Part shown: positions 256 through 56,157 of the stretch, piece after piece
How the letters are laid out: every line of letters starts with the position of its first letter
Numbering within the stretch: position 1 is the stretch's first letter
From: a candidate division Kazan bacterium RIFCSPHIGHO2_01_FULL_44_14
Lineage (GTDB): Bacteria > Patescibacteriota > Kazan-3B-28
Length of the DNA stretch: 64,000 nt
Reading direction: 5' to 3'
Assembly: GCA_001771185.1 (NCBI GenBank)
Contig: METB01000001.1
Location: 503,200 to 567,199 of the forward strand
The notes under the pieces: generated by a model
What the model saw: only the letters and a program-made list of their open reading frames with translations
Databases searched by the model: none
Told to the model about the DNA's origin: nothing
Made by a program: the position numbers and the translations under genes

Positions 256-1158
256 ATGCAGAAGTCACTTACCGCAGGCCAGATCAAGCAGATCTTGGGC
301 TTTCTGCGTGACGTGCTGATCGTCATCGGTCTGGGTTTCTACCAGGCTCAGGCTTTCATCAACGACAAGACCCGAGTGGACAAGTTCAAGGAGGACTTCA
401 AGGCCCTTCTGAATGCGAGCCTCAAGGTCAACCCGTACATCAAAGAACGGGTCAAGCAGGCCTGGTTCTATCCAAAGAACTGGAAGGTCAAGAATGTCAC
501 CGAGCAACTCGCCAAGCTCACCGAACTCTTCCCGGGTATCGACCTGTCACAGGTCGAGGCTCTGGTTGCCAAGGTGACTTTGCAGAAGTGGCATGACGGC
601 ATCGCCGTTCTGCCCAAGCTCTCGTTTCTGGGACTGCTGTGGGGGATCGCTGATCCCTATGGCAAGGGCTACGGTCTCATCTGCGAGAAGCTGTTCGAGC
701 TGATCGCTGGAAGCCGTGCCTTCCATAACTACCGGGCTGGGCAGATGAACGATCAGTACATTCGCATCATGGAGCAAGTTCGCGAACAGCTGAAAAAGCT
801 GGAAGCGGAAACTCCTGGCGATGTTCTCGTTCTCGCCTTCGACTTCGGCAAGACCTATGCCGGATACAGTCCACGCAACGCTCGCCACGAAGCACTGAAC
901 AACAATCAGCTCCCGCTGATTACCGCTCAGGTGGCGTCCCTTCTGCTGACTATGCCCGACCGTCTCACTGCCTGGGAGCAACTCTTCATCGATTGCTCCG
1001 GCGACGAGTGGGATTGGGACGCTGTTGGCCGCTGGTTGTACTCCGTCTGTTTCCGCTTCGACGACGGCCGGTTGCGCTTCGACAGCGGGAATGCCGACGC
1101 TCCGAGCGACGACTATGGTTCGGTGGTTGCGTCCCTCGGGAGTGTCCCTGGGGTCTAG
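256..1158 (+). CDS. DGR target (variable) protein; its C-terminal ~45 aa are encoded by the variable repeat (VR)
   Basis: 300-aa ORF with RBS agggag upstream. The last 132 nt match the downstream TR except at TR-adenine positions. TR codons in the target frame are mostly AAC, the usual DGR codon. No recognisable N-terminal domain. Confidence 0.75.
   Translation: MQKSLTAGQIKQILGFLRDVLIVIGLGFYQAQAFINDKTRVDKFKEDFKALLNASLKVNPYIKERVKQAWFYPKNWKVKNVTEQLAKLTELFPGIDLSQVEALVAKVTLQKWHDGIAVLPKLSFLGLLWGIADPYGKGYGLICEKLFELIAGSRAFHNYRAGQMNDQYIRIMEQVREQLKKLEAETPGDVLVLAFDFGKTYAGYSPRNARHEALNNNQLPLITAQVASLLLTMPDRLTAWEQLFIDCSGDEWDWDAVGRWLYSVCFRFDDGRLRFDSGNADAPSDDYGSVVASLGSVPGV
1013..1144 (+). repeat. DGR variable repeat (VR)
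   Basis: 132 nt aligning 1:1 with 1479..1610. There are 16 mismatches and every one has A in TR against G/T/C in VR. The last ~38 nt (ctatggttcggtggttgcgtccctcgggagtg) are identical and GC-rich, as expected for an IMH-like 3' end. Confidence 0.85.
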
Positions 1159-1204
1159 ATCCCTTGTCCCTTTTGACCCCTGTGTCCTTGAGTTCGAGTT
1201 TTGT

Positions 1205-1225
1205 GGGGCAGACCTAGTCTGCCCC
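1205..1225 (+). promoter_or_regulatory. GC-rich hairpin (ggggcagac-cta-gtctgcccc) ~60 nt downstream of VR, followed by a T-run; DGR-associated stem-loop and/or terminator of the target gene
   Basis: perfect 9-bp stem with a 3-nt loop, then tttctttttg. Confidence 0.5.
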
Positions 1226-1478
1226 TTTCTTTTTGCCAATATTTAAGTAAGATACCCAAGAGAGTAGGTTTATGTCTTGGGGTTTACGGATCTCAAGCAC
1301 CGAAATTGTGTCTTTCGTGACCCAGTCCGAGTCGGGCATGACTCCGGTCTGCCCGAGAGCACTGACCGATTTTAGACACTCCTTGCCTCTCATAAGTTTG
1401 AGGGTTAGTCCCCACATAAAATACAGCGAAGGCTATCTGACACTTAGCTCGCAGTGACCTGGATAGTGAGGAGGCAAA

Positions 1479-1610
1479 ATTGGGACGCTGATGGCCACTG
1501 GTTGAACTCCGTCTATTTCAACTTCAACGACGGCCAGTTGAACTTCGACAACAGGAATGCCAACGATCCGAACGACAACTATGGTTCGGTGGTTGCGTCC
1601 CTCGGGAGTG
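1479..1610 (+). repeat. DGR template repeat (TR)
   Basis: same length as VR; all 16 differences are adenines in this copy; lies between target and RT in the same orientation as VR. Confidence 0.85.
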
Positions 1611-2117
1611 TTAACGATTAATGCTTCGCATCCAGCCTCCAAGCATTTTGCCTAGCTCCTGGAGGCTGGATTGCAGAGCTAAGTATTGTTTGTCGCTAAT
1701 AGCTTTCACTTCAAAACTCATTCTTACCAATATCTTAATAAGCTCCAGTTTGGAGTTAGCGTTATGCAGGAGTTGAGTTTTTTCAGTTCCAACTGGTAAC
1801 TTGCTGGCACCCAGCAACAACTCCAGCAACTCAAGGGTTTGATGCGTAACATTCTGACCCAAGGTGTGTTTGTCTGCCTTGGGAAATTTGACTAGAATTC
1901 TGTGAAATTGGAGGAAGAAATCATGAACATGCTGAACAATCGGGATTTGCTCAAAAAGTTGCGGGGGGGGGGGCGTTAAAAGGCTTCTTTTCCATAATGG
2001 GGTGTTTGACCAAATTATTTCGTTAGAAAACTTGCTTACGGCCTGGTACGAGTTTCGGAACGGGAAACGCAGTAAGCCAGATGTCCAAGAATTTGAATAT
2101 ACACTTGAGGATAACAT
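1611..2117 (-). CDS. avd: Avd-like accessory variability determinant (four-helix-bundle, 23S-IVS protein-like family); encoded antisense to target/TR/RT
   Basis: ORF residues ~58-168 (FPKADKHTLGQ...LELIKILVRMSFEVKAISDKQYLALQSSLQELGKMLGGWMRSINR) resemble Bordetella phage Avd and the PF05635 pattern, including the C-terminal LG(S/G)W motif. Its stop abuts the TR 3' end. The annotated N-terminal 50 aa overlap the RT start antisense, so the true start is uncertain. An ATG at 1993-1995 (minus strand) would come into frame if the poly-G tract were 10 nt instead of 11. Confidence 0.65.
   Translation of the reverse strand: MLSSSVYSNSWTSGLLRFPFRNSYQAVSKFSNEIIWSNTPLWKRSLLTPPPPQLFEQIPIVQHVHDFFLQFHRILVKFPKADKHTLGQNVTHQTLELLELLLGASKLPVGTEKTQLLHNANSKLELIKILVRMSFEVKAISDKQYLALQSSLQELGKMLGGWMRSINR
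1963..1973. repeat. Homopolymeric G11 tract (encodes PPPP of Avd) between the divergent avd 5' end and the RT start
   Basis: gcgggggggggggcg read directly from the sequence. Confidence 0.9.
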
Positions 2118-3015
2118 ATTCCAGCTACATCGAGAGCTGGTGGCGGGTACCTACCAGCATACGAGTTATCACCAGTTTCGGCTGAGTGATCCGAAGCCCA
2201 GAATCATCAGTAAGGCGACTGTTCGAGATCGGATTCTCCACAAGGCAATCTACCGAATTCTCTATCCGGCTTTTGACACTACCTTTATATATGACAGCTA
2301 TTCTTGCCGGGACTATAAGGGAACTCATGCGGCATTTCTAAGGACTAAACAGATTGCTCGTAAAGTCAGCCGGAACTACACCGGGCAGTGCTGGGCTCTT
2401 AAATGTGATGTTCGTAAATTCTTCGATAGCGTTGATCATGAAATATTGATGGGCTTACTCGAGGAGAGAATCCATGACGAAAAGATGATGGGTTTACTTG
2501 CGGGAATCATTAGAAGCTTTGAGTTTAAGCCTGGGCAGGGGATGCCGCTCGGTAATTTGACCTCTCAGCTCTTTGCTAATGTTTACCTTGACCCGTTAGA
2601 TAAGTTTGTTAAACACCAGCTCAAGATTAAGTACTATCTGCGGTATGCTGATGACTTCATTTTCTTTGCTGACAACCCAGATGAATTGATGGGTTATTTT
2701 ATAGAAGTGGCCAGGTTTCTAAGGACCGAGCTTAAGCTACAAGTCCATCCCAATAAGACCATACTTCGGAAACTCAAGTGGGGGATTGATTTTGTCGGAT
2801 ATATGGCTTTTGCTCATCATGATTTGCCCCGGAGAAAAACAGCAGATCGGATAGTTAGAGGTTTGGAGAGCTCAATCGCCCAAGAGGACGAGAACGTTGA
2901 AAGCCGGTATCAGTCGTATCTAGGGTATCTATCCCATGTCGATAGTTTCGGGCGAAAAAGCCAGTTAGCTAAGATGATGGGGTATGCCACGGATCCGGCT
3001 GAAGTCAAGAAATGA
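2002..3015 (+). CDS. DGR reverse transcriptase
   Basis: RT motifs including YADD (YLRYADDFIFFA) and the DGR-type motif LGNLTSQ in place of group II QGxxxSP. 337 aa with no endonuclease or large maturase domain. GTG start at 2002. Adjacent TR/VR pair. Confidence 0.85.
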   Translation: MFDQIISLENLLTAWYEFRNGKRSKPDVQEFEYTLEDNIFQLHRELVAGTYQHTSYHQFRLSDPKPRIISKATVRDRILHKAIYRILYPAFDTTFIYDSYSCRDYKGTHAAFLRTKQIARKVSRNYTGQCWALKCDVRKFFDSVDHEILMGLLEERIHDEKMMGLLAGIIRSFEFKPGQGMPLGNLTSQLFANVYLDPLDKFVKHQLKIKYYLRYADDFIFFADNPDELMGYFIEVARFLRTELKLQVHPNKTILRKLKWGIDFVGYMAFAHHDLPRRKTADRIVRGLESSIAQEDENVESRYQSYLGYLSHVDSFGRKSQLAKMMGYATDPAEVKK

Positions 3016-3354: not shown

Positions 3355-4251
3355 ATGGCTATAACAAAACCAATTAAAGGTCGTATTCAGGCTCTTAAAG
3401 CCCAGTATGATGTTCTCCGCAAAGGCAAGGACTCGCTTTTGGTTATGATCGATGAGGCGGAAGTACCGGAGAGTGTCTACAACTCCAACGCTATCGAGAA
3501 CTCGACCCTTACCCTCAAGGAAACTGAAAAAATTCTCTTAGATATGGAAGTTGCTCGAGGTGTTTCTTTGCGTGAAGTTTACGAGGCAAAAAATCTTGCT
3601 CGAGTCATCGACTACATTCGCACCAAATCAAAAGAGACGGAAGTAAACCGTGAGCTTATATTACTCCTGCACCAGATGCTTATCGGTGGTATTGATGATA
3701 AAATCGCTGGTCGCTTTCGTGGCCCAGGCGAATATGTCCGAGTTGGTACGCACATTGCTCCTGCTCCAGAACAAGTGGAGAAATTGATTGCATCTATCAT
3801 TACCGAATACACGAGTGATATGTCTGCTTACTTTTTGGACAAGATCTCCAAGTTCCATTTAGAGTTTGAAACTGTTCATCCGTTTAATGATGGCAACGGC
3901 CGTATCGGACGGGTACTTATCAACTATCAGCTCCAACGGCTTGGCTTCCCGAGTGTCATCGTTCGGGATCGGGAGAAAAAAGAATACTACAAGTCCTTTG
4001 GCGATTATCGTGACGACAAAAACACCAAGACTCTTGGAAAGGTAGTCTATCTTGGGTTGATGGAGTCACTTCATAAACGGATTACTTACCTCAAAGGAGA
4101 CAAAGTTATTCGACTTTCTGAATATACAAAAAGCCACGCCAAGTCTGCTTCGGCAATAACAAACGCCGCGCGTCGACAGAACATCCCTGCTTTCAGAGAG
4201 AAGGGTGTTTGGAAGATTCCGGAGAATTTTAAGTACGAAGCAAGCAAATAA
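3355..4251 (+). CDS. fic: Fic-domain protein (AMPylase family), class II with N-terminal inhibitory motif
   Basis: HPFNDGNGRIGR matches the Fic motif HxFx(D/E)GNGRxxR; N-terminal SNAIEN matches the inhibitory (S/T)xxxE(G/N) motif. Confidence 0.85.
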   Translation: MAITKPIKGRIQALKAQYDVLRKGKDSLLVMIDEAEVPESVYNSNAIENSTLTLKETEKILLDMEVARGVSLREVYEAKNLARVIDYIRTKSKETEVNRELILLLHQMLIGGIDDKIAGRFRGPGEYVRVGTHIAPAPEQVEKLIASIITEYTSDMSAYFLDKISKFHLEFETVHPFNDGNGRIGRVLINYQLQRLGFPSVIVRDREKKEYYKSFGDYRDDKNTKTLGKVVYLGLMESLHKRITYLKGDKVIRLSEYTKSHAKSASAITNAARRQNIPAFREKGVWKIPENFKYEASK

Positions 4252-4835: not shown

Positions 4836-5804
4836 ATGCCACAAGGATTTTGGAAAAAATTGAAGCGGCCGATTATGGCGCTGGCGCCGATGGCGGATGT
4901 GACTGACGCGGCTTTTCGTAGGTTAATTTCCAAACATGGCAAGCCGGATGTGATGTGGACGGAGTTTGTGTCGTGTGATGGATTGTGTTCAGACAAAGGC
5001 AGACCGATGTTGATGCGAGCATTAAAGTTTGATATATCGGAGCGACCAATTGTCGCCCAGATTTTTGGGAGTACTCCAGAGCATTTTTATACATGTGCCA
5101 AGCTTTTAAAAAAACTGAAATTTGACGGAATTGATATCAATATGGGCTGTCCTGATAAAAAAGTAGAGAAGCAGGGAGGCGGGGCTAAACTCATGCTAAA
5201 TCCAAAATTAGCGCAGGAAATTATTCGGCAAACTAAGCGGGGAGCGGGTGGCTTACCGGTCTCGGTCAAGACCCGGCTGGGTTACAGTCAGCGAAATATC
5301 CAGGAATGGGTAAAGGCGCTAATCGAAACTGAACCAGCGGTAATTATCGTTCATGCCAGAACCCGCAAAGAAATGTCAAAGGTGCCAGCGGATTGGAAGG
5401 CGATTAAAGAGGTTGTACAATTGGTGAAAAAGTCGGGTAAAGATATTTTGGTGATTGGAAATGGGGATGTAAAAAGTGTGGCGGAAGCCAGGCGTCTGGC
5501 TAAAATATCTGGTGCGGATGGGGTGATGGTGGGTAGAGGGGTGTTTGGCAACCCTTGGTTTTTTAACAAAACTAAAAATAAGGTATTACTAAAGGAAAAG
5601 TTGACCGTGATGGTCGAACATGCCAAGTTGTTTGAAAAACTGACTCCCAATCAAAGTTTTTCGATTATGAAAAAGCATTTTAAGGCCTATGTGGCCGGAT
5701 TTGATGGGGCAAATCAACTTCGGGCTAAGTTGATGACGACTAAAAACAGCGCGGAAGTGGCTAAATTGGTCAAAGCTTGGGATTTAGTCATTGTTCGGAA
5801 ATAA
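4836..5804 (+). CDS. dus: tRNA-dihydrouridine synthase (Dus family)
   Basis: N-terminal ALAPMADVTDAAFRRL with a TIM-barrel flavoenzyme pattern. Confidence 0.8.
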   Translation: MPQGFWKKLKRPIMALAPMADVTDAAFRRLISKHGKPDVMWTEFVSCDGLCSDKGRPMLMRALKFDISERPIVAQIFGSTPEHFYTCAKLLKKLKFDGIDINMGCPDKKVEKQGGGAKLMLNPKLAQEIIRQTKRGAGGLPVSVKTRLGYSQRNIQEWVKALIETEPAVIIVHARTRKEMSKVPADWKAIKEVVQLVKKSGKDILVIGNGDVKSVAEARRLAKISGADGVMVGRGVFGNPWFFNKTKNKVLLKEKLTVMVEHAKLFEKLTPNQSFSIMKKHFKAYVAGFDGANQLRAKLMTTKNSAEVAKLVKAWDLVIVRK

Positions 5805-7086: not shown

Positions 7087-7118
7087 ACGGATTGATAGGT
7101 TCGTTGATTCTCTAGGGT

Positions 7119-7190
7119 GGGCTCGTAGCTCAGTGGTAGAGCAGTCCCCTCATAAGGGACTTGTCCTTGGTTCGATCCCAAGCGAGCCCA
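7119..7190 (+). tRNA. tRNA-Met (anticodon CAU), elongator type
   Basis: cloverleaf with acceptor gggctcg/cgagccc, anticodon loop ctcataa and T-loop ttcgatc; G1-C72 is paired; the acceptor stem is extended by a flanking inverted repeat (ctctagggtg...caccctagag). Confidence 0.8.
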
Positions 7191-7361
7191 CCCTAGAGAG
7201 TGAGCAACGCTATCATTATCCATTTCAAATCAAATCGCCCCGATAGTACGGGGACCCCGAAATAGTCTAACGCAGTGAATATTTTGGGGAGAAAGAGAAA
7301 CGATTGAGTTCTAAAAGCATCCTGGCTTGCCGGGATAGCGTAACGCGAAATTGTTTAGACG

Positions 7362-7436
<75 letters not shown>

Positions 7437-7472
7437 GGTAGATAGTAGCAACTGAAATAGATTTTGTCTACC

Positions 7473-7886
7473 CTAACCGAAGAAATAATCCCACCATTTT
7501 TCAGGATTTCCTGGCTGATGTCGGGTTTCTTCAATGGGCTGATCTTTGATATTGCCTTCTTGGAACCGAGCCGTATCATCCTCGGGAATAATTAACACAA
7601 TTTCGCCAGGTTTCTGATAATTTAATTTTGCTCTGGCCTCTTTGTCTTTGAAGGAATCGGTTTTGCGGTAGGCAATCAAATTCTGAAGATATTTATTTTG
7701 GAGTTTTAATTCAGCATTGTTTTCACGTAAATGTGCCAACTCTCTGTCTAAACTGTAGTTTTGCCAAAGTGCCTGGACAGTCGAAACCACCATGTAGACC
7801 GTAATTACAATTCCCACCGTCATAATTGCCCGGATGCGAAGCTCTCGGCCTTGGGGGAGCTGAATTATCGGTAGTTTTTTAGCCAT
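7473..7886 (-). CDS. Septum-formation initiator-like protein (FtsB/DivIC family)
   Basis: single N-terminal TM helix followed by a coiled coil (LAHLRENNAELKLQNKYLQNLI). Confidence 0.5.
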   Translation of the reverse strand: MAKKLPIIQLPQGRELRIRAIMTVGIVITVYMVVSTVQALWQNYSLDRELAHLRENNAELKLQNKYLQNLIAYRKTDSFKDKEARAKLNYQKPGEIVLIIPEDDTARFQEGNIKDQPIEETRHQPGNPEKWWDYFFG

Positions 7887-7922
7887 GGTATCCTAAGTGT
7901 AGCAAGAACTTAAATCAAATTT

Positions 7923-8180
7923 ATGAACCAAGAGAGACAATATTTTGGAGAGCTGGATGGTAGTAATTTGGAGAAGATGCGCAAAACCCCAGAAGAAGTA
8001 GCGGTCGATACAGCGCGAGAGTTATTTGATTTGATTGGGCCTGAAGGGATTAAATTATTATTGGAGCGGTTGTCACCGGTCCAAACTGGAAATAAACCAG
8101 AAGGATCCAAGAGATCATATCGGCGAGAAATGGATGTGGTTTTTGAAGAGTGGAGACGCCTGCTCAAAAAATTGGCATAA
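7923..8180 (+). CDS. hypothetical small protein
   Basis: 85-aa ORF only; a minus-strand ORF of the same size overlaps it, so the strand is uncertain. Confidence 0.25.
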   Translation: MNQERQYFGELDGSNLEKMRKTPEEVAVDTARELFDLIGPEGIKLLLERLSPVQTGNKPEGSKRSYRREMDVVFEEWRRLLKKLA

Positions 8181-8351
8181 TAACCTTCAAAGAACAGGAT
8201 AATTTTGGTGGTAATATTTTTGGTGCCAGCGACAGGACCCTCCTGTGTTTAATCTTATCGCAAGTAAATCACTTGTCTCTTGCGATATAGATATCACTAT
8301 GGAAGGACAGGTTCGCAGCCCAAGGATTACTTGTCCCGTTAAAAATTTTGG

Positions 8352-8423
8352 TGTCAGGGGCGGGATTCGAACCCGCGACCAGCGGCTTATGAGTCCGCTG
8401 CTCTACCACTGAGCTACCCTGAC
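8352..8423 (-). tRNA. tRNA with CAU anticodon, likely tRNA-Ile2 (lysidine-modified) given the adjacent tilS
   Basis: third CAU-anticodon tRNA in the window (acceptor gtcaggg/ccctgac, T-loop ttcgaat); assignment to Ile2 is inference. Confidence 0.65.
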
Positions 8424-13983: not shown

Positions 13984-15885
13984 ATGACCAACATTAGAAA
14001 CTTTTGCATAATCGCGCATATTGATCATGGGAAGTCGACTTTGGCTGACCGGCTTTTAGAGTTGACTAATACAATCTCCAGTCGCGAAATGAGAGCGCAG
14101 TATTTGGATACAATGGATCTGGAGCGGGAGCGGGGGATTACGATTAAACTTCAGCCGGTGCGAATGCATTACGATTACCGTCATTCTGGCAAGGGCGCCG
14201 AAGGTGGCCGCGACCAGAATCTTATACGATCCTGGGCAATCCAGGATGACGAGATCAGTGATGGCTTCTATGAATTAAATCTGATAGATACACCAGGGCA
14301 TGTTGATTTTACTTACGAAGTGTCGCGGTCATTGGCGGCCGTAGAGGGGGCACTTCTGGTGGTGGATGCGAGTCAGGGAATTGAAGCCCAAACTTTGGCG
14401 AATCTACACTTGGCTCAAGAACATCATTTAACAATTATTCCAGTTGTAAACAAAATTGATTTGCCGGCAGCGGATCCGGATAGAGTTATTCGAGAGCTCC
14501 AATCGGTAATTGGGATTGAACCCGAAGATGTCATTTTGGTATCAGCTAAAACCGGGGAAGGAGTGGAAAAAATTCTGGATGCGATTGTCGAACGGGTGCC
14601 AGCACCCAAGGGGAATGCGGACGCACCACTTCGGGCGTTAGTATTTGATTCGTATTTTGATCAGTTTCGAGGAGTGGTGGCGTATGTGCGGATTGTTGAT
14701 GGTGAGGTTAAGGCCGGTGATAACATTGTGATGATGGCAAGTAGGGCCAAAGTCGAAGTAATGGAAGTTGGGTGTTTTGCTCCAAAACTAACCAAACAGT
14801 CAATTTTGGAAACGAGTGAGATTGGTTATATCGCAACTGGTTTAAAAGATGTAAGGTCAGTGCGAGTGGGAGACACAATAACTTTGGTGGAACCAAAGTT
14901 AAGTGAAAAGTTAAAAGTGAAAAGTGAAAAGTGGGAGGGAGTGAAGGCGTTGGAGGGGTATAAGCAGGTGATGCCGTTTGTGTATGCGGGAATATTTACT
15001 ATCGATAATGCTGATTTTCCGCAATTAAGGGATGCGTTGGACAAATTACAGCTGAATGACTCTTCGTTGATATTTGAGCCAGAGAGTTCACCGGCTTTGG
15101 GATTTGGTTTTAGATGTGGATTTTTAGGTCTACTTCATTTGGATATTGTCCAAGAACGATTAGAGCGGGAGTTTAATCTGAATTTAGTAACCACTACTCC
15201 GAGTGTAAGTTATGAGGTAACAATGCCAGGGGGTGACAAGAAGATTATTCATAATCCAACTGAATTGCCACCGGCTGGAACTTACAAGGAAATTGCCGAG
15301 CCGTGGATTCGGCTGGAGGTGGTGTGTCCGGCGGAATATGTCGGGAATGTGATGCAGTTGATTCAGGGGAAGCGGGGAGTACAAGTTGATGTGAAATATC
15401 TTGATCCGACTCGGTCAGTACTAATTTATGAAATTCCGTTGGCTTCCGTGGTAACTGAATTTTATGATCAACTTAAAAGTGTGACTTCTGGTTATGCTTC
15501 GATGGCATATGAGATGTTGGAATATCGGGTAGACAATTTGGTGAAGGTAGATATTTTGTTAAATACTAAACCAATTGATACTTTGTCAGTGATTATTCAT
15601 CGGAGCGAAGCCCAAAGAATCGGCCAGAAAATCGCTACCAAACTAAAAGAACTTTTGCCGCGACAGAATTTCAAGATTGTTATCCAGGCCGCGATTGGTG
15701 GGAAGGTAATTGCTCGCGAGGAGCTTTCGCCGTATCGGAAAGATGTGACGGCAAAATTGTATGGTGGAGATGTAACACGCAAGAATAAGCTGTTGGATAA
15801 ACAGAAAAAGGGTAAAAAGCGGATGAAGATGGTGGGAGATGTTGAGATTCCTCAATCAGTATTTCGGAGCATGGTGAGTAATTAA
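13984..15885 (+). CDS. lepA: Elongation factor 4 (LepA) with lineage-specific insertions
   Basis: G1 motif AHIDHGKST and DTPGHVDF; a ~30-aa insertion before DTPGH; an internal tandem DNA repeat at 14899..14935. Confidence 0.9.
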   Translation: MTNIRNFCIIAHIDHGKSTLADRLLELTNTISSREMRAQYLDTMDLERERGITIKLQPVRMHYDYRHSGKGAEGGRDQNLIRSWAIQDDEISDGFYELNLIDTPGHVDFTYEVSRSLAAVEGALLVVDASQGIEAQTLANLHLAQEHHLTIIPVVNKIDLPAADPDRVIRELQSVIGIEPEDVILVSAKTGEGVEKILDAIVERVPAPKGNADAPLRALVFDSYFDQFRGVVAYVRIVDGEVKAGDNIVMMASRAKVEVMEVGCFAPKLTKQSILETSEIGYIATGLKDVRSVRVGDTITLVEPKLSEKLKVKSEKWEGVKALEGYKQVMPFVYAGIFTIDNADFPQLRDALDKLQLNDSSLIFEPESSPALGFGFRCGFLGLLHLDIVQERLEREFNLNLVTTTPSVSYEVTMPGGDKKIIHNPTELPPAGTYKEIAEPWIRLEVVCPAEYVGNVMQLIQGKRGVQVDVKYLDPTRSVLIYEIPLASVVTEFYDQLKSVTSGYASMAYEMLEYRVDNLVKVDILLNTKPIDTLSVIIHRSEAQRIGQKIATKLKELLPRQNFKIVIQAAIGGKVIAREELSPYRKDVTAKLYGGDVTRKNKLLDKQKKGKKRMKMVGDVEIPQSVFRSMVSN

Positions 15886-22206: not shown

Positions 22207-22440
22207 ATGATTATTTTCGTTATTTCCGTGCCCGTCCGCAACGATTCGCCAGCCCGTAGTGGATACAACATTTCTGGCGGGCGTAGCGATTCTGGCAGGA
22301 AAACGGGAATCCAGAAAGAAACTGACGTCCTTGCGTCATCCTCGGGGCCACCGCTAGGTGGAGCCCGGGGAACCAGACATAAAAAGATTTTTATTTTCTT
22401 TTCTAAATCCCCGGGTCAAGCCCGAGGATGACTTAAAGGA
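22207..22440. repeat. Composite repeat: family A palindromic element (22231..22312) plus a gtcatcctcgggg...cccgaggatgac hairpin element (22336..22432)
   Basis: 22231..22312 is near-identical to 49186..49267; the 22336..22432 inverted repeat shares gtcatcctcggg / gagcccgggga / aaaaagatttt with 55845..56030. Confidence 0.75.
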
Positions 22441-29644: not shown

Positions 29645-30312
29645 GGTTCTGGTATACCAGTAATCTTTTAAAAGGAGTTTAGATAAAGGGTTTCTAGCCC
29701 CGACTTGTCGGGGTGATAGAGTTCCCCCGGTTCCTGGATGTCAGGAGCTGATTTTTATTTGTTCTCCTTTTTGTAAGATTGTCTGGATGTACTTTTCCAA
29801 CCAGTGAGTACTCAGAGAGCTTTAGTTTTGTTTTTCATCTTGTACCGCAAGGTGCAAGTTATTTACCGTTTTGAAATTTGTTTGTTGCAAAACAAATAAC
29901 TTTTCAGAACTTTTTTGAGAGTTTGATCCTGGCTCAGGATTAACGCTGGCGGCATGCCTAACACATGCAAGTCGAATGCCCAGTGCGTAGCACTGGGAAT
30001 GTCAAATGAAAAATGAAAAATGAAAAATGTTGGTGTCTCTGGCTTCGCCAGGATTCCGGCATTTGTAATTTGTAATTTGTAATTTGGTGTTTCCAATGCT
30101 TCGCATTGGTAGCATGGCAGACGGCTGAGTAACGCGTGGGAACTTACCTCTAAGTTGGGTATAACCTGCCGAAAGGCGGGATAATCCCCAATGTGTTCGC
30201 AAGAACAAAGATTTATCGCTTAGAGAGAGGCCTGCGTCCGATTAGCTTGTTGGTGGGGTAATGGCCTACCAAGGCACTGATCGGTAGGGGGCTTGAGAGG
30301 GTGACCCCCCAG

Positions 30313-30357
<45 letters not shown>

Positions 30358-30749
30358 AGGGATTTTCCGCAATGGACGAAAGTCTGACGGAGCAATGCCG
30401 CGTGAAGGAAGAAGGTCTTCGGATTGTAAACTTCTTTTGCTTGGGAAGATTATGACGGTACCAAGCGAATAAGACGCTGCTAACTACGTGCCAGCAGCAG
30501 CGGTAATACGTAGGCGTCGAGCGTTATCCGGATTTACTGGGCGTAAAGCGTCCGCAGGTGGGTTGACAAGTCCGATATTAAATATCCCGGCTCAACCGGG
30601 AAAAAGTGTTGGAAACTGTCGATCTTGAGATTGGGAGAGGCTGATGGAACTTATGGAGTAGGGTTGAAATCCGTAGATACCATAAGGAACACCAAAGGCG
30701 AAGGCAGTCAGCTGGCCCAATTCTGACACTCATGGACGAAAGCGTGGGT

Positions 30750-30783
<34 letters not shown>

Positions 30784-30880
30784 CCTAAACGATGGATACT
30801 AGGCATTGGTGGCATCGACCCCCTCAGTGCCGAAGCTAACGCGTTAAGTATCCCGCCTGGGGAGTACGGTCGCAAGACTA

Positions 30881-30940
<60 letters not shown>

Positions 30941-31445
30941 GTAAGCGGAGCACCTCACCAAGATTTGACATCCTGTTGAAAGCGACTGGAAACAGACGCC
31001 TCCTTTTAGGCAACAGTGACAGGTGCTGCACGGTTGTCGTCAGCTCGTGTCGTGAGATGTACGGTTAAGTCCGATAACGAGCGCAACCCCTATGTTGTGT
31101 TGTATTTTTCACAACAGACTGCCGTGGTTAACACGGAGGAAGGTGGGGATGACGTCAAATCAGCGTGGCCTTTATATCTTGGGCGACACACGTGCTACAA
31201 TGGGTAGGTCACAATGGGTTGCGATGCCGTAAGGCGGAGCTAATCCCACCAAAACTACCCCAAGTTCGGATTGAGGGCTGCAACTCGCCCTCATGAAGCT
31301 GGAATCGCTAGTAACCGCAAATCAGCCATGTTGCGGTGAATACGTTCTCGGGTCTTGTACACACCGCCCGTCACACCAAGAAAGTGAGAAACATCCGAAA
31401 TCCTCTTTTAGAGGCCTAAGGTGGAGCTCATGATCGGGGTGAAGT

Positions 31446-32211
31446 TTAACGGCTTCCCATGCAAGTAATTGCATGGTAAAATCTAACTATATCGGTGAAC
31501 TCCAAAGTAATTTGGACAACGCCGAGGGAAGTTGGGCTAGAAGCTGGGAATGTCCCAAACAAAGCAAGGAAATCTTATCCGACAGAGTCCGTTGACATCT
31601 CAAGAAGTTGAGGTGATTCAAGGGTGTTTACTCGGAGATGGAACACTTTCCAAGTCAGGAAAGAACTATCGTCTGCGAGTTGAACATAAGTCATCACATT
31701 GGGAGTATGTTGAGTGGAAATTTGCCCTTTTAAGGCGGATTTGCATGAACGAACCTAACTATGTGCCGACGCACGCATCATTGCGTTTTGGCTCAATCGG
31801 ACATCCAGAGATTACTGAGATGAGAAGACAATGGTATCGTCCGTATAAACAGATACCGTCAGGATTAGTGCTGACACCGCTAATGTTAGCGGTTTGGTTT
31901 ATGGATGATGGCACCAAGCATCGAGATACAGTTGATGTATCGGTGCAAAGTTTTTCTAGAGAAAACTTGCAGAGTTTAAGAGATCAGTTGTTGACAATGG
32001 GAGTGCAAACTACCATCAACAGTGATTCTAAGGGCAATCGACTATACTTTATTAAAAGTAGTTACCCAGTATTCAAAAAACTTGTTAAACCATACATTGT
32101 GGAATGTATGGCATATAAGTTGCCTTAACCCCGTAGAGACTATACGTTGGCTCCGTCGAAAGACGGATGAAGACATAGTCCGGCACTCTCGGTAACGAGA
32201 GGTAACAGTCG
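31446..32211 (+). mobile_element. Intron inserted in 16S between GGGGTGAAGT and CGTAACAAGG (E. coli ~1495), carrying a homing endonuclease ORF
   Basis: the exon sequence is interrupted exactly within this conserved 3' stretch; contains the LAGLIDADG ORF. Confidence 0.8.
31550..32128 (+). CDS. LAGLIDADG homing endonuclease, intron-encoded
   Basis: two LAGLIDADG-like motifs, IQGCLLGDGTL and LMLAVWFMDDGTK. Confidence 0.85.
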   Translation: MSQTKQGNLIRQSPLTSQEVEVIQGCLLGDGTLSKSGKNYRLRVEHKSSHWEYVEWKFALLRRICMNEPNYVPTHASLRFGSIGHPEITEMRRQWYRPYKQIPSGLVLTPLMLAVWFMDDGTKHRDTVDVSVQSFSRENLQSLRDQLLTMGVQTTINSDSKGNRLYFIKSSYPVFKKLVKPYIVECMAYKLP

Positions 32212-34160: not shown

Positions 34161-34237
34161 TGGTGGAGATGGGGAGATTCGAACTCCCGACCTCCTGCTT
34201 GCAAAGCAGGCGCTCTAACCAACTGAGCTACATCCCC
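34161..34237 (-). tRNA. tRNA-Ala (anticodon UGC)
   Basis: cloverleaf; anticodon loop tttgcaa; G3:U70 pair; encoded CCA. Confidence 0.85.
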
Positions 34238-34351
34238 AATTTATAAATGCAGTGTTCTACCAGATGCCTGTCCACCAAAGTGATATCTATGTTCCAAGTG
34301 GCTAATGACCTATTTGTGATGAGATTGAACGACGGTGGAAACTACGGGCCC

Positions 34352-34573
34352 CTAAACCCCAAAAAATCCTAATGTGATGCGGTCAAATCCTATCAGAAAA
34401 CCCATAGCGATGGCAATTAGTCCGAATAAAATATAGGCCGTATAAGTGCCACCGGCTCCTAGATAGCGTTCTGCCCAGCCAATCTTGTATCCAATCAAGG
34501 TAGCTAACTTTTTATGATAGATAACAAGTAGAGTTCCCCCGAACACCCCCAAAATAAAGAAGAAAAATCGCAT
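34352..34573 (-). CDS. hypothetical small membrane protein
   Basis: two TM helices, 73 aa. Confidence 0.4.
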   Translation of the reverse strand: MRFFFFILGVFGGTLLVIYHKKLATLIGYKIGWAERYLGAGGTYTAYILFGLIAIAMGFLIGFDRITLGFFGV

Positions 34574-34766
34574 GCTGTTATTATACCAATTTCATTGATA
34601 CAGACCGATTTTTTTGGTACTCTGGCAGGTGTTGGTGCCTAAATTCTCCATCCAAATCCGTGAACTAGGCCGTAGGCCGTTTACAGATTTGAGAGGAGCA
34701 ACACCGAGCGCCAAGAGCCGAGCGAGCATGCCGAGCTCGTGCGTACCTCGAGGTTGTTGTGACGAG

Positions 34767-34843
34767 GGGCGTGTAGCTCAGTTGGTTAGAGCGCTGTCCT
34801 GATAAGACAGAGGTCCCTGGTTCGAATCCAGGCACGCCCACCA
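34767..34843 (+). tRNA. tRNA-Ile (anticodon GAU)
   Basis: cloverleaf; anticodon loop ctgataa; encoded CCA. Confidence 0.85.
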
Positions 34844-36357: not shown

Positions 36358-36981
36358 CTACTTCTCCCAATACTTTTCTTCGATATTTCCAGCAAAGTAT
36401 TCGTAGCGTTCAAGGGTAAAAAGTAAATCCGACAACCGATTGGAAAACTTGCGGATGACTGGGTCAACTTCTTCGGTTTCAGCTAACGAGACAATCATTC
36501 GTTCGGTTCGGCGACAAGTAGTTCTGGCAACTGACAAAAATGCCCCGGCTTTGTTTTGCCCTGGGACAATAAAAGTGGTGATAGGAAGCAAATCGGTATT
36601 GAAATAATCAATGCATTTTTCTAGTCCGGTCACTTCTAGTTCAGTGATGATTGGTAACCGAGCTGGCCCGCCTGCAGCGCTATGCCAGCCCGCAGTAGTT
36701 ACAGCGTTTCTGGCGGGCGTAGCATTGCGGGCAGGGTCAGTATTGTTTAGTGGGCTAGCCAAAATTGAAGCACTATTCATTAATTTATGCTGAATCCGCT
36801 CCAGCAGTTTTTTAATATCAGGCACATTGCTAAAAATTTTGGCCACACCGATGGCGGTATTTAATTCATCAATCGTTCCGTAGGTCTGCACTCTTAAAGA
36901 GGCCTTACTAATCCTGGGGCCGTTAAACAGGCCAGTAGTACCGTCATCGCCTTTGCGGGTATAAATCTTGGGGAGTTCCAT
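36358..36981 (-). CDS. PduO-type ATP:cob(I)alamin adenosyltransferase carrying an in-frame insertion of a family A repeat
   Basis: N-terminus MELPKIYTRKGDDGTTGLFNGPRISK...; ~30 extra residues (NNTDPARNATPARNAVTTAGWHSAAGGPARLP) are encoded by the repeat copy at 36667..36735. Confidence 0.8.
   Translation of the reverse strand: MELPKIYTRKGDDGTTGLFNGPRISKASLRVQTYGTIDELNTAIGVAKIFSNVPDIKKLLERIQHKLMNSASILASPLNNTDPARNATPARNAVTTAGWHSAAGGPARLPIITELEVTGLEKCIDYFNTDLLPITTFIVPGQNKAGAFLSVARTTCRRTERMIVSLAETEEVDPVIRKFSNRLSDLLFTLERYEYFAGNIEEKYWEK
36667..36735. repeat. Family A palindromic repeat copy inside the adenosyltransferase coding sequence
   Basis: cccgcctgcagcgctatgccagcccgcagtagttacagcgtttctggcgggcgtagcattgcgggcagg is near-identical to 53982..54051 and related to 22231..22312 and 49186..49267. 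Confidence 0.8.
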
Positions 36982-49169: not shown

Positions 49170-49335
49170 CAACGTCATTCCCGCACCCGTCCGCAACGAT
49201 TCGCCAGCCCGTAGTGGATACAACATTTCTGGCGGGCGTAGCGATTCGGGCAGGAAGGCGGGAATCCAGAAAGAAAAATAAAAAACTTTTTCCTGTTTCT
49301 GTCTGGATCCCGGCCTTCGCCGGGATGACAAGATA
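49170..49335. repeat. Family A repeat (49186..49267, near-identical to 22231..22312) flanked by gtcattcccgc...gcgggaatcc and gtcatcccggcgaaggccgggatcc hairpin elements, directly upstream of tRNA-Leu
   Basis: a short family A relative (ccagcccgcattgctacgcaaagcgttgctggtggg, 49049..49084) also lies on the other side of the tRNA. Confidence 0.75.
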
Positions 49336-52661: not shown

Positions 52662-54112
52662 AGGGGCAATTAAAAATTACAAATTAAAAATGACAAATGG
52701 GGGATAGGGATAAGTTAAAGGTGAAAAGTCCTCCTCCGTTCTGCTGTACAGCAGAACTACGGAAGGATCTGCGATGAAAAGTTAGGGAAGGGATAATGAC
52801 AAATTAAAAATTAAAAATGGAGGATAAGGGGAGAGTGTATCTTCAATTTAACCAATTTATCCAATCTGTACCAATCTAACCAAAGCATTGTCATCCCGAG
52901 CGTAGTCGAGGGATCTAGTGGCTAGATTTCTTCATCCCGCCAGCTGGCGGAAGTCGGGATGACGCCCATATCTGGTGAGTGTCCAATAATTGGCTCTGGG
53001 AGCGATAAAACTCTTGACTGACCCTGATAAATAGAGTATACTTAAAGGATAACAGAAGAGCGGTCCCTCGGGGGACTCGGGAACAGCGAGGGACAGCCAA
53101 AGGAGGGTGGTTATAGCAAATTAACAAACCACCGAAGAATGCAAAAATCGCAAAAAATCATCGATTTTTCCGGAATGCAGTTTGATGCCAATCGGCGTCC
53201 CAGCTGGCGTTTGCGTCAGAAATCTAGAACCATGCGGTCTCGTAATCATGTTGCTCGTAATGTTCGTACCATTGTTCAAAATATATTCGGAATGTAAGTT
53301 GGCTCTGACTCGTTCAAGCGTGTGGGTTAAAGATCGGTTTGAAAGTTTAGTGGTAGTGATGGAATCATTTACTGCGGGATTAGGACTGTAGTTTTTTTAT
53401 TTTTTCCCGTCATCCTGAACTTGTTTCAGGATCTATTTTTCTTATCCGTCATTCTGGCTTGCGTAGCCCTTCGTAGCTCGGAGAGCGTAGTAGGGTCCAG
53501 AATCTTTTTTATTTTCTTTTTCGAGCGTAGAATGACGCTCGACCCATTGGCACTTTTTGCTTGTCCAATATGCTTTTGCAACGCCTGTGTCGCGTTGCAT
53601 CGACAGCCACTTTGTCTTGGCAAAGTGGCTCAAACCGCTGGCCAACGTCCTCGGACTTATTCACTGACTAAATCTCTGGGTGTTCCCGCCGAACTCCTCC
53701 TCATTTCATTCGTCGTCAAACATGCGGCTTCACCCACCGAGATTTAGTTCAGTTCAGAACAGTCCTCGTCCTAGGGCCAATTAAGAAGAAAACAGAAGAC
53801 ACAGTTTGTTCGATGGGTCTTGGATGAAATTGGCCCTTCAGTGAAGGGTTGTTCTGAATTGAGCTAAATCCTCGTTACAGGGAGATGTTTGAGTCCTGCT
53901 GTCCAGCAGGACGAGTTTCGACCATTAGCAGAAAGAGGATTTAGCCAATGAATAGACCCGGAACTGTCCGGGCCACGGCTTCCCGCCTGCAACGCTATGC
54001 CAGCCCGTAGTAGATACAACGTTTCTGGTGGGAGTAGGCATTGCGGGCAGGTTGTTACTTTCCTTTGGGACGGAAAGTAACGGCGGGTTGAGCGTCGCCT
54101 TGCGCTCAAAAA
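52662..54112. repeat. 1.45-kb non-coding, repeat-dense region (family A copy 53982..54051, family B mosaic 53530..53830, and gtcatYc hairpins at 52885..52960 and 53410..53540)
   Basis: no ORF with protein-like composition; multiple segments match repeats elsewhere in the window. Confidence 0.7.
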
Positions 54113-56030: not shown

Positions 56031-56157
56031 AGCTACGGATGGGCAGGGTGCTATAATGTAAGCCGTTACTGGTTTAATATCCAAATTCCAAATTTCAAAC
56101 TCCAAAGGAGATGTCCCTATTTGGTTATTGTGATTTGATGATTGATTATTACGAGCA

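Follow-up and report, generated by a model that had tools for sequence, protein, structure and literature searches.

The diversity-generating retroelement (DGR) of Bordetella phage BPP-1 comprises the target gene mtd with its variable region (VR), the accessory gene avd, a template repeat (TR) and the reverse transcriptase (RT) gene brt, the last three in the order avd-TR-brt. Motifs named RT-1 to RT-19 have been described near RT genes, and RT-10 lies between TR and RT in BPP-1 (PMC5737381). For the DGRs of the candidate phyla radiation (CPR) and DPANN, passages of Wu et al. (2018, PMC5758913) assign 90% of the CPR elements to an architecture termed B3, and state that B subtypes differ in how avd and TR are ordered and oriented. 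Simple-sequence-repeat (SSR) contingency loci, including poly-G/C tracts of Neisseria, Haemophilus and Campylobacter and those of phages T2/T4 (PMC12633550), carry a long homopolymer inside a 5' coding region, and changes in its length, seen between genomes that match elsewhere, switch the reading frame. Here we analyse a 64-kb stretch of DNA (the window, in whose positions all coordinates are given) from a Rifle groundwater genome of the CPR member candidate division Kazan bacterium RIFCSPHIGHO2_01_FULL_44_14. It contains a DGR with a run of 11 G inside the antisense overlap of its avd and RT genes.

The locus is a genuine chromosomal DGR. It shares with BPP-1 the A-to-N asymmetry between TR and VR, an Avd accessory protein and a VR at the 3' end of a target with a predicted C-type lectin fold. 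It differs from BPP-1, a phage element, in residing on the chromosome of a CPR bacterium, and in that an inverted avd stands between TR and RT and overlaps RT antisense. The cassette runs target with VR (plus strand), TR (plus), avd (minus), RT (plus):

256..1158, plus strand: target gene, an open reading frame (ORF) of 300 aa with the VR at its 3' end
1013..1145, plus strand: VR, an ungapped 133-nt copy of the TR repeat with 16 differences, all at TR adenines
1479..1611, plus strand: TR, with 31 adenines and eight AAC codons in the target frame
1611..1995, minus strand: avd, with a four-helix-bundle body at 1614-1946 and a conserved ATG at 1995-1993
2002..3015, plus strand: RT body of 337 aa from GTG 2002, the first canonical in-frame start, with LGNLTSQ (motif 4) and YADD

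An earlier sequence-only reading of this stretch had proposed a complete DGR. The DGR itself is borne out: every component is present, and each passes its own test (TR/VR asymmetry, RT, Avd, shared cassette). The word complete suits the parts but not the frames, as avd and a longer form of the RT are both broken at 11 G; the element is complete in its parts, yet probably switched off as sequenced.

The strongest mark of a DGR is the pattern of differences between the two repeats. At all 16 mismatches the TR base is A, as the sequence-only reading had claimed, a pattern with P ~8e-11 under random placement over the TR bases. The VR carries G at 11 of these positions, C at three and T at two, so that 16 of the 31 TR adenines are altered. 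In the codons of ORF 256-1158 every change affects the first or second position, and the third never coincides with a TR adenine. Some details of the first description needed correction. The repeats are indeed gap-free with 16 differences, but extend over 133 nt rather than 132; the TR holds eight AAC codons, not seven, and all eight are changed in the VR; and the shared 3' end, likened to the initiation-of-mutagenic-homing (IMH) site, is identical and GC-rich (59%) but spans 34 nt instead of about 38, and no IMH/IMH* difference lies within it. A degenerate search, in which N stood for each A, found no third copy of the repeat in the 64 kb. With only two copies, the window holds one target.

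The RT matches Pfam RVT_1 with E 2.7e-24 and contains both motifs that had been noted in it, LGNLTSQ and YADD. Its closest solved relative is the RT of the BPP-1 DGR (8ub7; 166 bits, E 1e-47), with which it shares [LIV]GxxxSQ and YxDD. The best group II intron RT among solved structures reaches 86 bits, and the best retron RT (36ht) and the defence-associated RTs at most 29 bits. The NCBIfam group II model scores 142 bits, far under its cut-off of 300; NCBIfam has no DGR-RT model. A closer affinity to group II intron or retron RTs had been named as grounds for rejecting the DGR, and these scores point the other way: by sequence similarity the RT belongs with the DGR RTs. The Avd-like ORF reported between TR and RT is likewise real, although it lies on the minus strand, which had not been stated, and the ORF from its ATG is broken. 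Its product passes two Avd profiles (NCBIfam DivGenRetAVD, 85.1 bits against a cut-off of 80; Pfam bAvd, 67.9 bits against 40), the domain match covering residues 59-164 of ORF 1611-2117 on the minus strand. A sequence search of the PDB with Avd returned noise only. On these profile matches Avd is a DGR Avd.

As a DGR, the element is ordinary and belongs to a CPR class that has already been surveyed. The full cassette of target(+)-TR(+)-avd(-)-RT(+) recurs in 25 distinct related loci, with 11-26 TR/VR mismatches each, nearly all at TR adenines; in two of the 25 the cassette is inverted and upstream of the target. GTDB species genomes contain 124 relatives of the target, mostly in Patescibacteria, with one Nanoarchaeia and some Acidobacteriaceae. 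Proteins of the window have also been deposited under the name 'uncultured bacterium' (AQS30588.1, AQS31115.1), so the locus has probably been catalogued before. Like the CPR/DPANN elements in passages of PMC5758913, the cassette follows the pattern of architecture family B, being made up of target, avd, TR and RT without any further accessory gene, comes from groundwater and has a target without a Pfam family. We would assign it to B3, a type that those passages leave undefined.

The feature that sets the locus apart lies where avd and RT meet:

1963..1973, no strand assigned: 11-G homopolymer, the proposed phase-variation tract, which would be read as Gly3 in the long form of RT and Pro3 in Avd
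1870..1925, plus strand: start signals of the long RT, with a promoter-like TTGTCT-17-TAGAAT (1870-1898), the Shine-Dalgarno sequence GGAGG (1909-1913) and ATG 1923, antisense inside avd

No obvious start is seen for either gene in the window. In most Parcubacteria-type relatives avd and RT diverge from starts a few bases apart, with Avd beginning MNDFDIPIF and RT beginning MK.Y..[IL]F[ED]. In the clade of the window a run of 7-11 G separates the Avd body from its conserved minus-strand ATG, and a conserved plus-strand ATG, antisense to an Avd His codon, stands upstream of the run. Gene calls for many homologous RTs in the databases begin with the long N-terminus that follows from this ATG, M..[IV]E....N[ND]RD...(G)GG[VL]KR..FH, and some of these come from clades that lack a G run. 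Such recurrence indicates that the long form is genuine, so that avd and RT share about 70 nt at their 5' coding ends on opposite strands, with the 11-G run in the shared part.

The run is the only homopolymer of at least 9 bases in the 64 kb, against 0.018 expected, and no other short-unit repeat of similar length occurs in the window. Codon boundaries coincide on both strands and on both sides of it, so a single-base indel shifts avd and RT together. With 11 G both genes are truncated: the span of avd (385 nt) is one base too long and its ATG ORF halts at 1951 after 14 codons, while the ORF from the RT start, ATG 1923, ends at TAA 1977-1979. Removing one G in silico leaves Avd intact and gives an RT of 363 aa. 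The GGAGG lies 9 nt upstream of ATG 1923. We considered the G run itself as a Shine-Dalgarno sequence for RT and rejected this, as in the window 28 nt separate the run from GTG 2002, although in a related locus (L010) a TTG follows 7 nt downstream.

The single-base variant exists in nature. An independent assembly, a 255-kb scaffold (L094), matches 9015 nt of the window base for base apart from the run, which has 10 G instead of 11 G. There the avd ORF reads MEKKPFNAPPPQLFEQIPIV...SINR and is intact; the annotation calls the long RT, with 361 aa and the start MLNNRDLLKKLRGGGVKR, and misses avd. A database protein (P0169) corresponds to the long form from ATG 1929. The window shares its 11 G with L001-L004 and L095, five assemblies in all. 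The same aquifer yielded a second lineage in which the flanks of the homologous run are about 99.8% identical but its length is not: three contigs have 9 G, two have 10 G and one has 11 G. At 9 G this lineage encodes a long RT form of 354 aa, and avd, read on the minus strand, is in frame too. In L018 (9 G) both genes are likewise in frame. All three contigs with the 9-G tract (L099, L100, L101) break off within avd at one and the same point, exactly 96 nt upstream of the RT start, which suggests either population heterogeneity or a repeat-induced assembly break.

Protein calls point in the same direction. In three more RT clusters at 90% identity, the N-termini upstream of the Gly run are in different frames; the members of a control RT cluster that lacks a G run differ only in the start chosen within a single frame. 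Differences in N-terminal length as such were rejected as stand-alone evidence, since the control cluster shows them too.

Repeats of other kinds occupy the same place in other clades. One related locus (L029, ~5658-5700) has (CCTGT)8 at the 5' coding end of avd, with the avd ATG out of frame with the body, and another (L102, 181-207) has (GT)13 between the avd ATG and the body, which is one base out of frame. The presence of unrelated repeat types at one and the same site in avd argues for a function and not for a sequencing artefact.

We regard it as reasonably probable that the tract is a phase switch, in which repeat-driven slipped-strand events would control Avd jointly with the long RT form, and through them the activity of the DGR. 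Slipped-strand mispairing at the G run would switch the frame reversibly, and most cells would have an inactive DGR, with an active one in a minority only. In that minority, by analogy with BPP-1, TR-containing RNA would be copied by RT and Avd into cDNA with misincorporation opposite adenines, and the mutated cDNA would replace the VR. A wider generalization receives our slight preference: that CPR DGRs have repeatedly placed poly-G, (CCTGT)n or (GT)n at the 5' coding end of avd, in Kazan and Berkelbacteria within the overlap shared with RT, as a contingency locus that would serve as a heritable, reversible master switch of a targeted hypermutator. Mutation would then act in two tiers, and a minority of cells would undergo bursts in which the receptor is diversified. 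The tract resembles known SSR contingency loci in its position inside a 5' coding region and in its length variation between otherwise identical genomes. It differs from them in sitting in two genes at once on opposite strands and in that it would gate a targeted hypermutation machinery and not a surface antigen.

A number of observations weigh against a switch. The tract lengths come from consensus assemblies only, and every sequencing platform is prone to errors in runs of 10-11 G. Translation of RT could begin at GTG 2002 independently of the tract length, and the Avd frame at 11 G has no stop as far back as ATG 2117, which yields an ORF of 168 aa. In two related loci (L052, L017) the conserved ATG is out of frame with the Avd body although there is no long repeat, so that this ATG may not be the sole way to start Avd. 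Among about ten species-level loci that bear a tract, a single one (L018) is in frame, and three (L005, L006, L088) have the same out-of-frame total length; the out-of-frame state could thus be the normal working state, served by slippage or recoding. The tract count of L006 appears unreliable if, as we suppose, its assembly stems from a long-read soil survey. Finally, the 10-G assembly, in which the switch would be on, has the same VR as the 11-G assemblies, in which it would be off, so that the on state is not visibly linked to new diversification.

Part of these observations would fit an ordinary, constitutive DGR, with RT translated from GTG 2002 and Avd from ATG 2117 or a non-canonical start near IPIV, and with the differences in the G run being sequencing or assembly noise, or neutral variation. 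The position of GTG 2002 as the first canonical RT start agrees with this, as do the starts of most Parcubacteria-type relatives, only about 6 residues upstream of the equivalent position, and the open Avd frame and the error-proneness of homopolymers already mentioned. Yet GTG 2002 has no Shine-Dalgarno sequence at a usable spacing, whereas ATG 1923 has GGAGG and a promoter-like site, and the extension to ATG 2117 is an antisense shadow of RT that stop codons close in L005 and L006. Nor does noise fit well with 11 G in six assemblies and 9 G or 10 G in three and two contigs of the second lineage, and it cannot produce three unrelated repeat types at one spot in avd. We consider a constitutive element unlikely.

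Programmed recoding would accommodate the prevalence of out-of-frame tracts in another way. RNA-polymerase slippage or ribosomal frameshifting on the G/C run would yield a small, constant in-frame fraction of avd and RT mRNA or protein and make the tract a throttle instead of a heritable switch. Long homopolymers are known slippage sites, and that L005, L006 and L088 keep one out-of-frame length across species-level divergence is what such a throttle would lead one to expect. The correction needed is, however, +1 in some loci and -1 in others, and for this reason we rejected a directional ribosomal frameshift; the length of the tract differs at the DNA level; and the penta- and dinucleotide repeats of the other clades are classic tracts of DNA slippage, not of transcriptional slippage. 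Recoding as the main mode of control is in our view likewise unlikely, though it is compatible with a phase switch and does not exclude one.

The variation of the target agrees with a phase switch that is mostly off. Variation in the strain of the window was read from exact-protein look-ups and clusters at 90% identity. Eleven contigs encode one and the same target protein, which is alone in its 90% cluster; the VR is the same in the consensus assemblies of the window, L001, L002, L094 and L095. By comparison, six near-identical natural variants of the L036 type, a relative whose avd starts in the ordinary way and lacks a repeat, differ at 18 residues. All 18 correspond to TR codons with A at position 1 or 2, a class that makes up 20 of the 43 codons. 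A second pair of near-identical relatives differs only inside the VR. The cassette family thus looks as if it diversifies in nature while the window copy is quiescent, as expected for an 11-G element in the off state, within a small sample. A switch that is mostly off would explain why the VR is frozen in this strain while repeat-free relatives diversify. An exact 32-mer scan of metagenome contigs gave no match to the VR 3' junction, and a protein-guided scan recovered a single relative, 73% identical and cut at the contig end.

The same invariance would be expected if the element were decaying, with the frameshift as the first step of pseudogenisation and the VR as a fossil of past activity. 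Target homologues without a nearby cassette, as in L090, could be read in this way too. But apart from the tract neither avd nor RT contains a stop or frameshift, a single-base variant that restores both genes is found in nature, and the TR, the RNA domain 5' of it and the element after the VR are intact and conserved. We consider decay very unlikely.

In L090 (4001-5716) a close target homologue (P0006) has no adjacent TR, avd or RT and is followed by HTH_17 and Fic genes; about 130 residues before its VR are identical to those of protein P0005, and the VR is different. In the window a Fic gene (3355-4251) comes after RT. L095 differs from the window at 17 positions, none of them in the VR; 16 are clustered within about 110 nt of the Fic gene (window 3726-3837) and are not adenine-specific. 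The sole difference of L002 is C>A at 3810, a position at which L095 also differs from the window, and the Fic gene of L002 is called in two pieces. L096 (2176-2193) lacks about 326 nt between VR and TR that are present in its near-identical sister L098 (1864-2207), which cuts its target to 252 aa; this deletion is the result of either VR-TR recombination or assembly collapse.

Profile searches of Pfam and NCBIfam and a sequence search of the PDB, whose hits were noise, found no relative of the target, in keeping with the earlier remark that it has no recognisable N-terminal domain. The structure prediction that had been proposed as a check gave an AlphaFold model (30 homologues; pLDDT 94.1, pTM 0.88) in which the C-terminus with its diversified surface is predicted to be a C-type lectin fold. 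About 200 residues of the N-terminal part are conserved, with invariant Y72, Y139, S205, R207, R210 and R236. By sequence the target stands outside the families of the known C-type-lectin DGR proteins (Mtd, Treponema TvpA, the Legionella-type DUF1566/Lcl-like and the FGE-like proteins), and its conserved N-terminal part has no recognised relative.

Three non-coding elements flank the repeats:

1373..1478, plus strand: structured RNA with a three-way junction directly 5' of TR, formed by a 12-bp closing stem P1 and hairpins P2 and P3
1159..1203, plus strand: CTTG-rich non-coding element of about 45 nt just 3' of VR, absent after TR
1205..1235, plus strand: GC hairpin (9 bp, seven of them G-C; 1205-1225) with a T run, 59 nt downstream of VR and 47 nt past the stop codon

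The RNA has an invariant junction, given as AUAAAAUACAG or AUAAAAU(A/U)CAG, and the 3' strand of P1 ends a few bases before TR. RNAalifold on a MAFFT alignment of 25 sequences upstream of TR recovered 4 pairs only, because the variable hairpins were misaligned, and a subset of 13 sequences was used instead. In this seed compensatory changes are seen in 23 of 29 pairs, and 92.8% of cells are paired as against 35-54% when the partners are slid; none of 500 shuffles reached the observed values. A covariance model built from Parcubacteria-type seeds, leaving out the window and all Kazan-clade loci, finds the window at 1373-1491 (33.3 bits, E 1.4e-7) as the sole match in the 64 kb, and exactly one match per cassette in 32 loci (e.g. 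L050 1388-1537), including all those of the Kazan clade. Rfam 15 gave no match in 1150-2100, even at E up to 10, and hence no RT-10-like motif among the matches there. The structured spacer with RT-10 lies between TR and RT in BPP-1, whereas here the three-way junction lies 5' of TR. It would precede the TR in the template RNA and may serve as a scaffold for RT and Avd. A comparison of 25 loci gave no consensus structure 3' of TR. At its 3' end the TR of Kazan-clade loci abuts the avd stop codon, whereas Parcubacteria-type cassettes have a terminator-like hairpin there.

After the VR, CTTG occurs one to six times in 70 nt in 23 of 25 cassettes, against about 0.3 expected, and the element aligns across the family; its pattern is roughly 10-nt-periodic. 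As it follows the VR and not the TR, we consider it a candidate mark of the recipient site. The GC hairpin reported after the VR exists, but at a distance and with a T tail, and the same kind of hairpin is found 49-59 nt after the VR in all six Kazan-clade loci. The T run makes it terminator-like: it looks like the intrinsic terminator of the target gene, and not like the BPP-1-type cruciform that abuts the IMH.

Adenine mutagenesis that runs unchecked is costly where it hits a receptor that works. To the question of how DGR mutagenesis is restrained, the locus offers a concrete, testable answer within one large group of these elements, a slippery repeat that would toggle the accessory protein and, here, the long RT too. 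A limited literature search found no publication linking DGRs with simple-sequence repeats or phase variation, and no mention of the antisense avd/RT overlap, its repeat tract or the RNA domain 5' of TR, the passages of PMC5758913 included. The poly-G tract in the antisense overlap, with its length polymorphism, may thus be a new and testable variant of possible DGR control. Such cassettes are miscalled by annotation, as gene callers seldom call both of two antisense-overlapping genes. Mechanistic models of CPR-type DGRs must also account for the three-way-junction RNA 5' of TR and for the VR-specific 3' element.

Elsewhere in the window, four GC-rich, hairpin-like repeats of 70 nt share 76-97% identity (22230-22299, 36666-36735, 49185-49254 and 53981-54050); one copy adjoins a tRNA-Leu gene and one lies inside ORF 36358-36981 on the minus strand. 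A 16S rRNA gene is found at 29911-31492, with no 23S gene called anywhere in the window; tRNA-Ala (minus) and tRNA-Ile (plus) lie about 2.7 kb beyond it (34161-34843), facing apart. Three tRNA-Met genes fall within 1.3 kb (7118-8423). Short heptamer arrays (AAGTGAA, AAATGAA, ATTTGTA and others) occur at 14901-14933, 30004-30086, 52668-52699 and 56080-56106, two of them, at 30004-30086, just inside the 5' end of the match to the 16S model.

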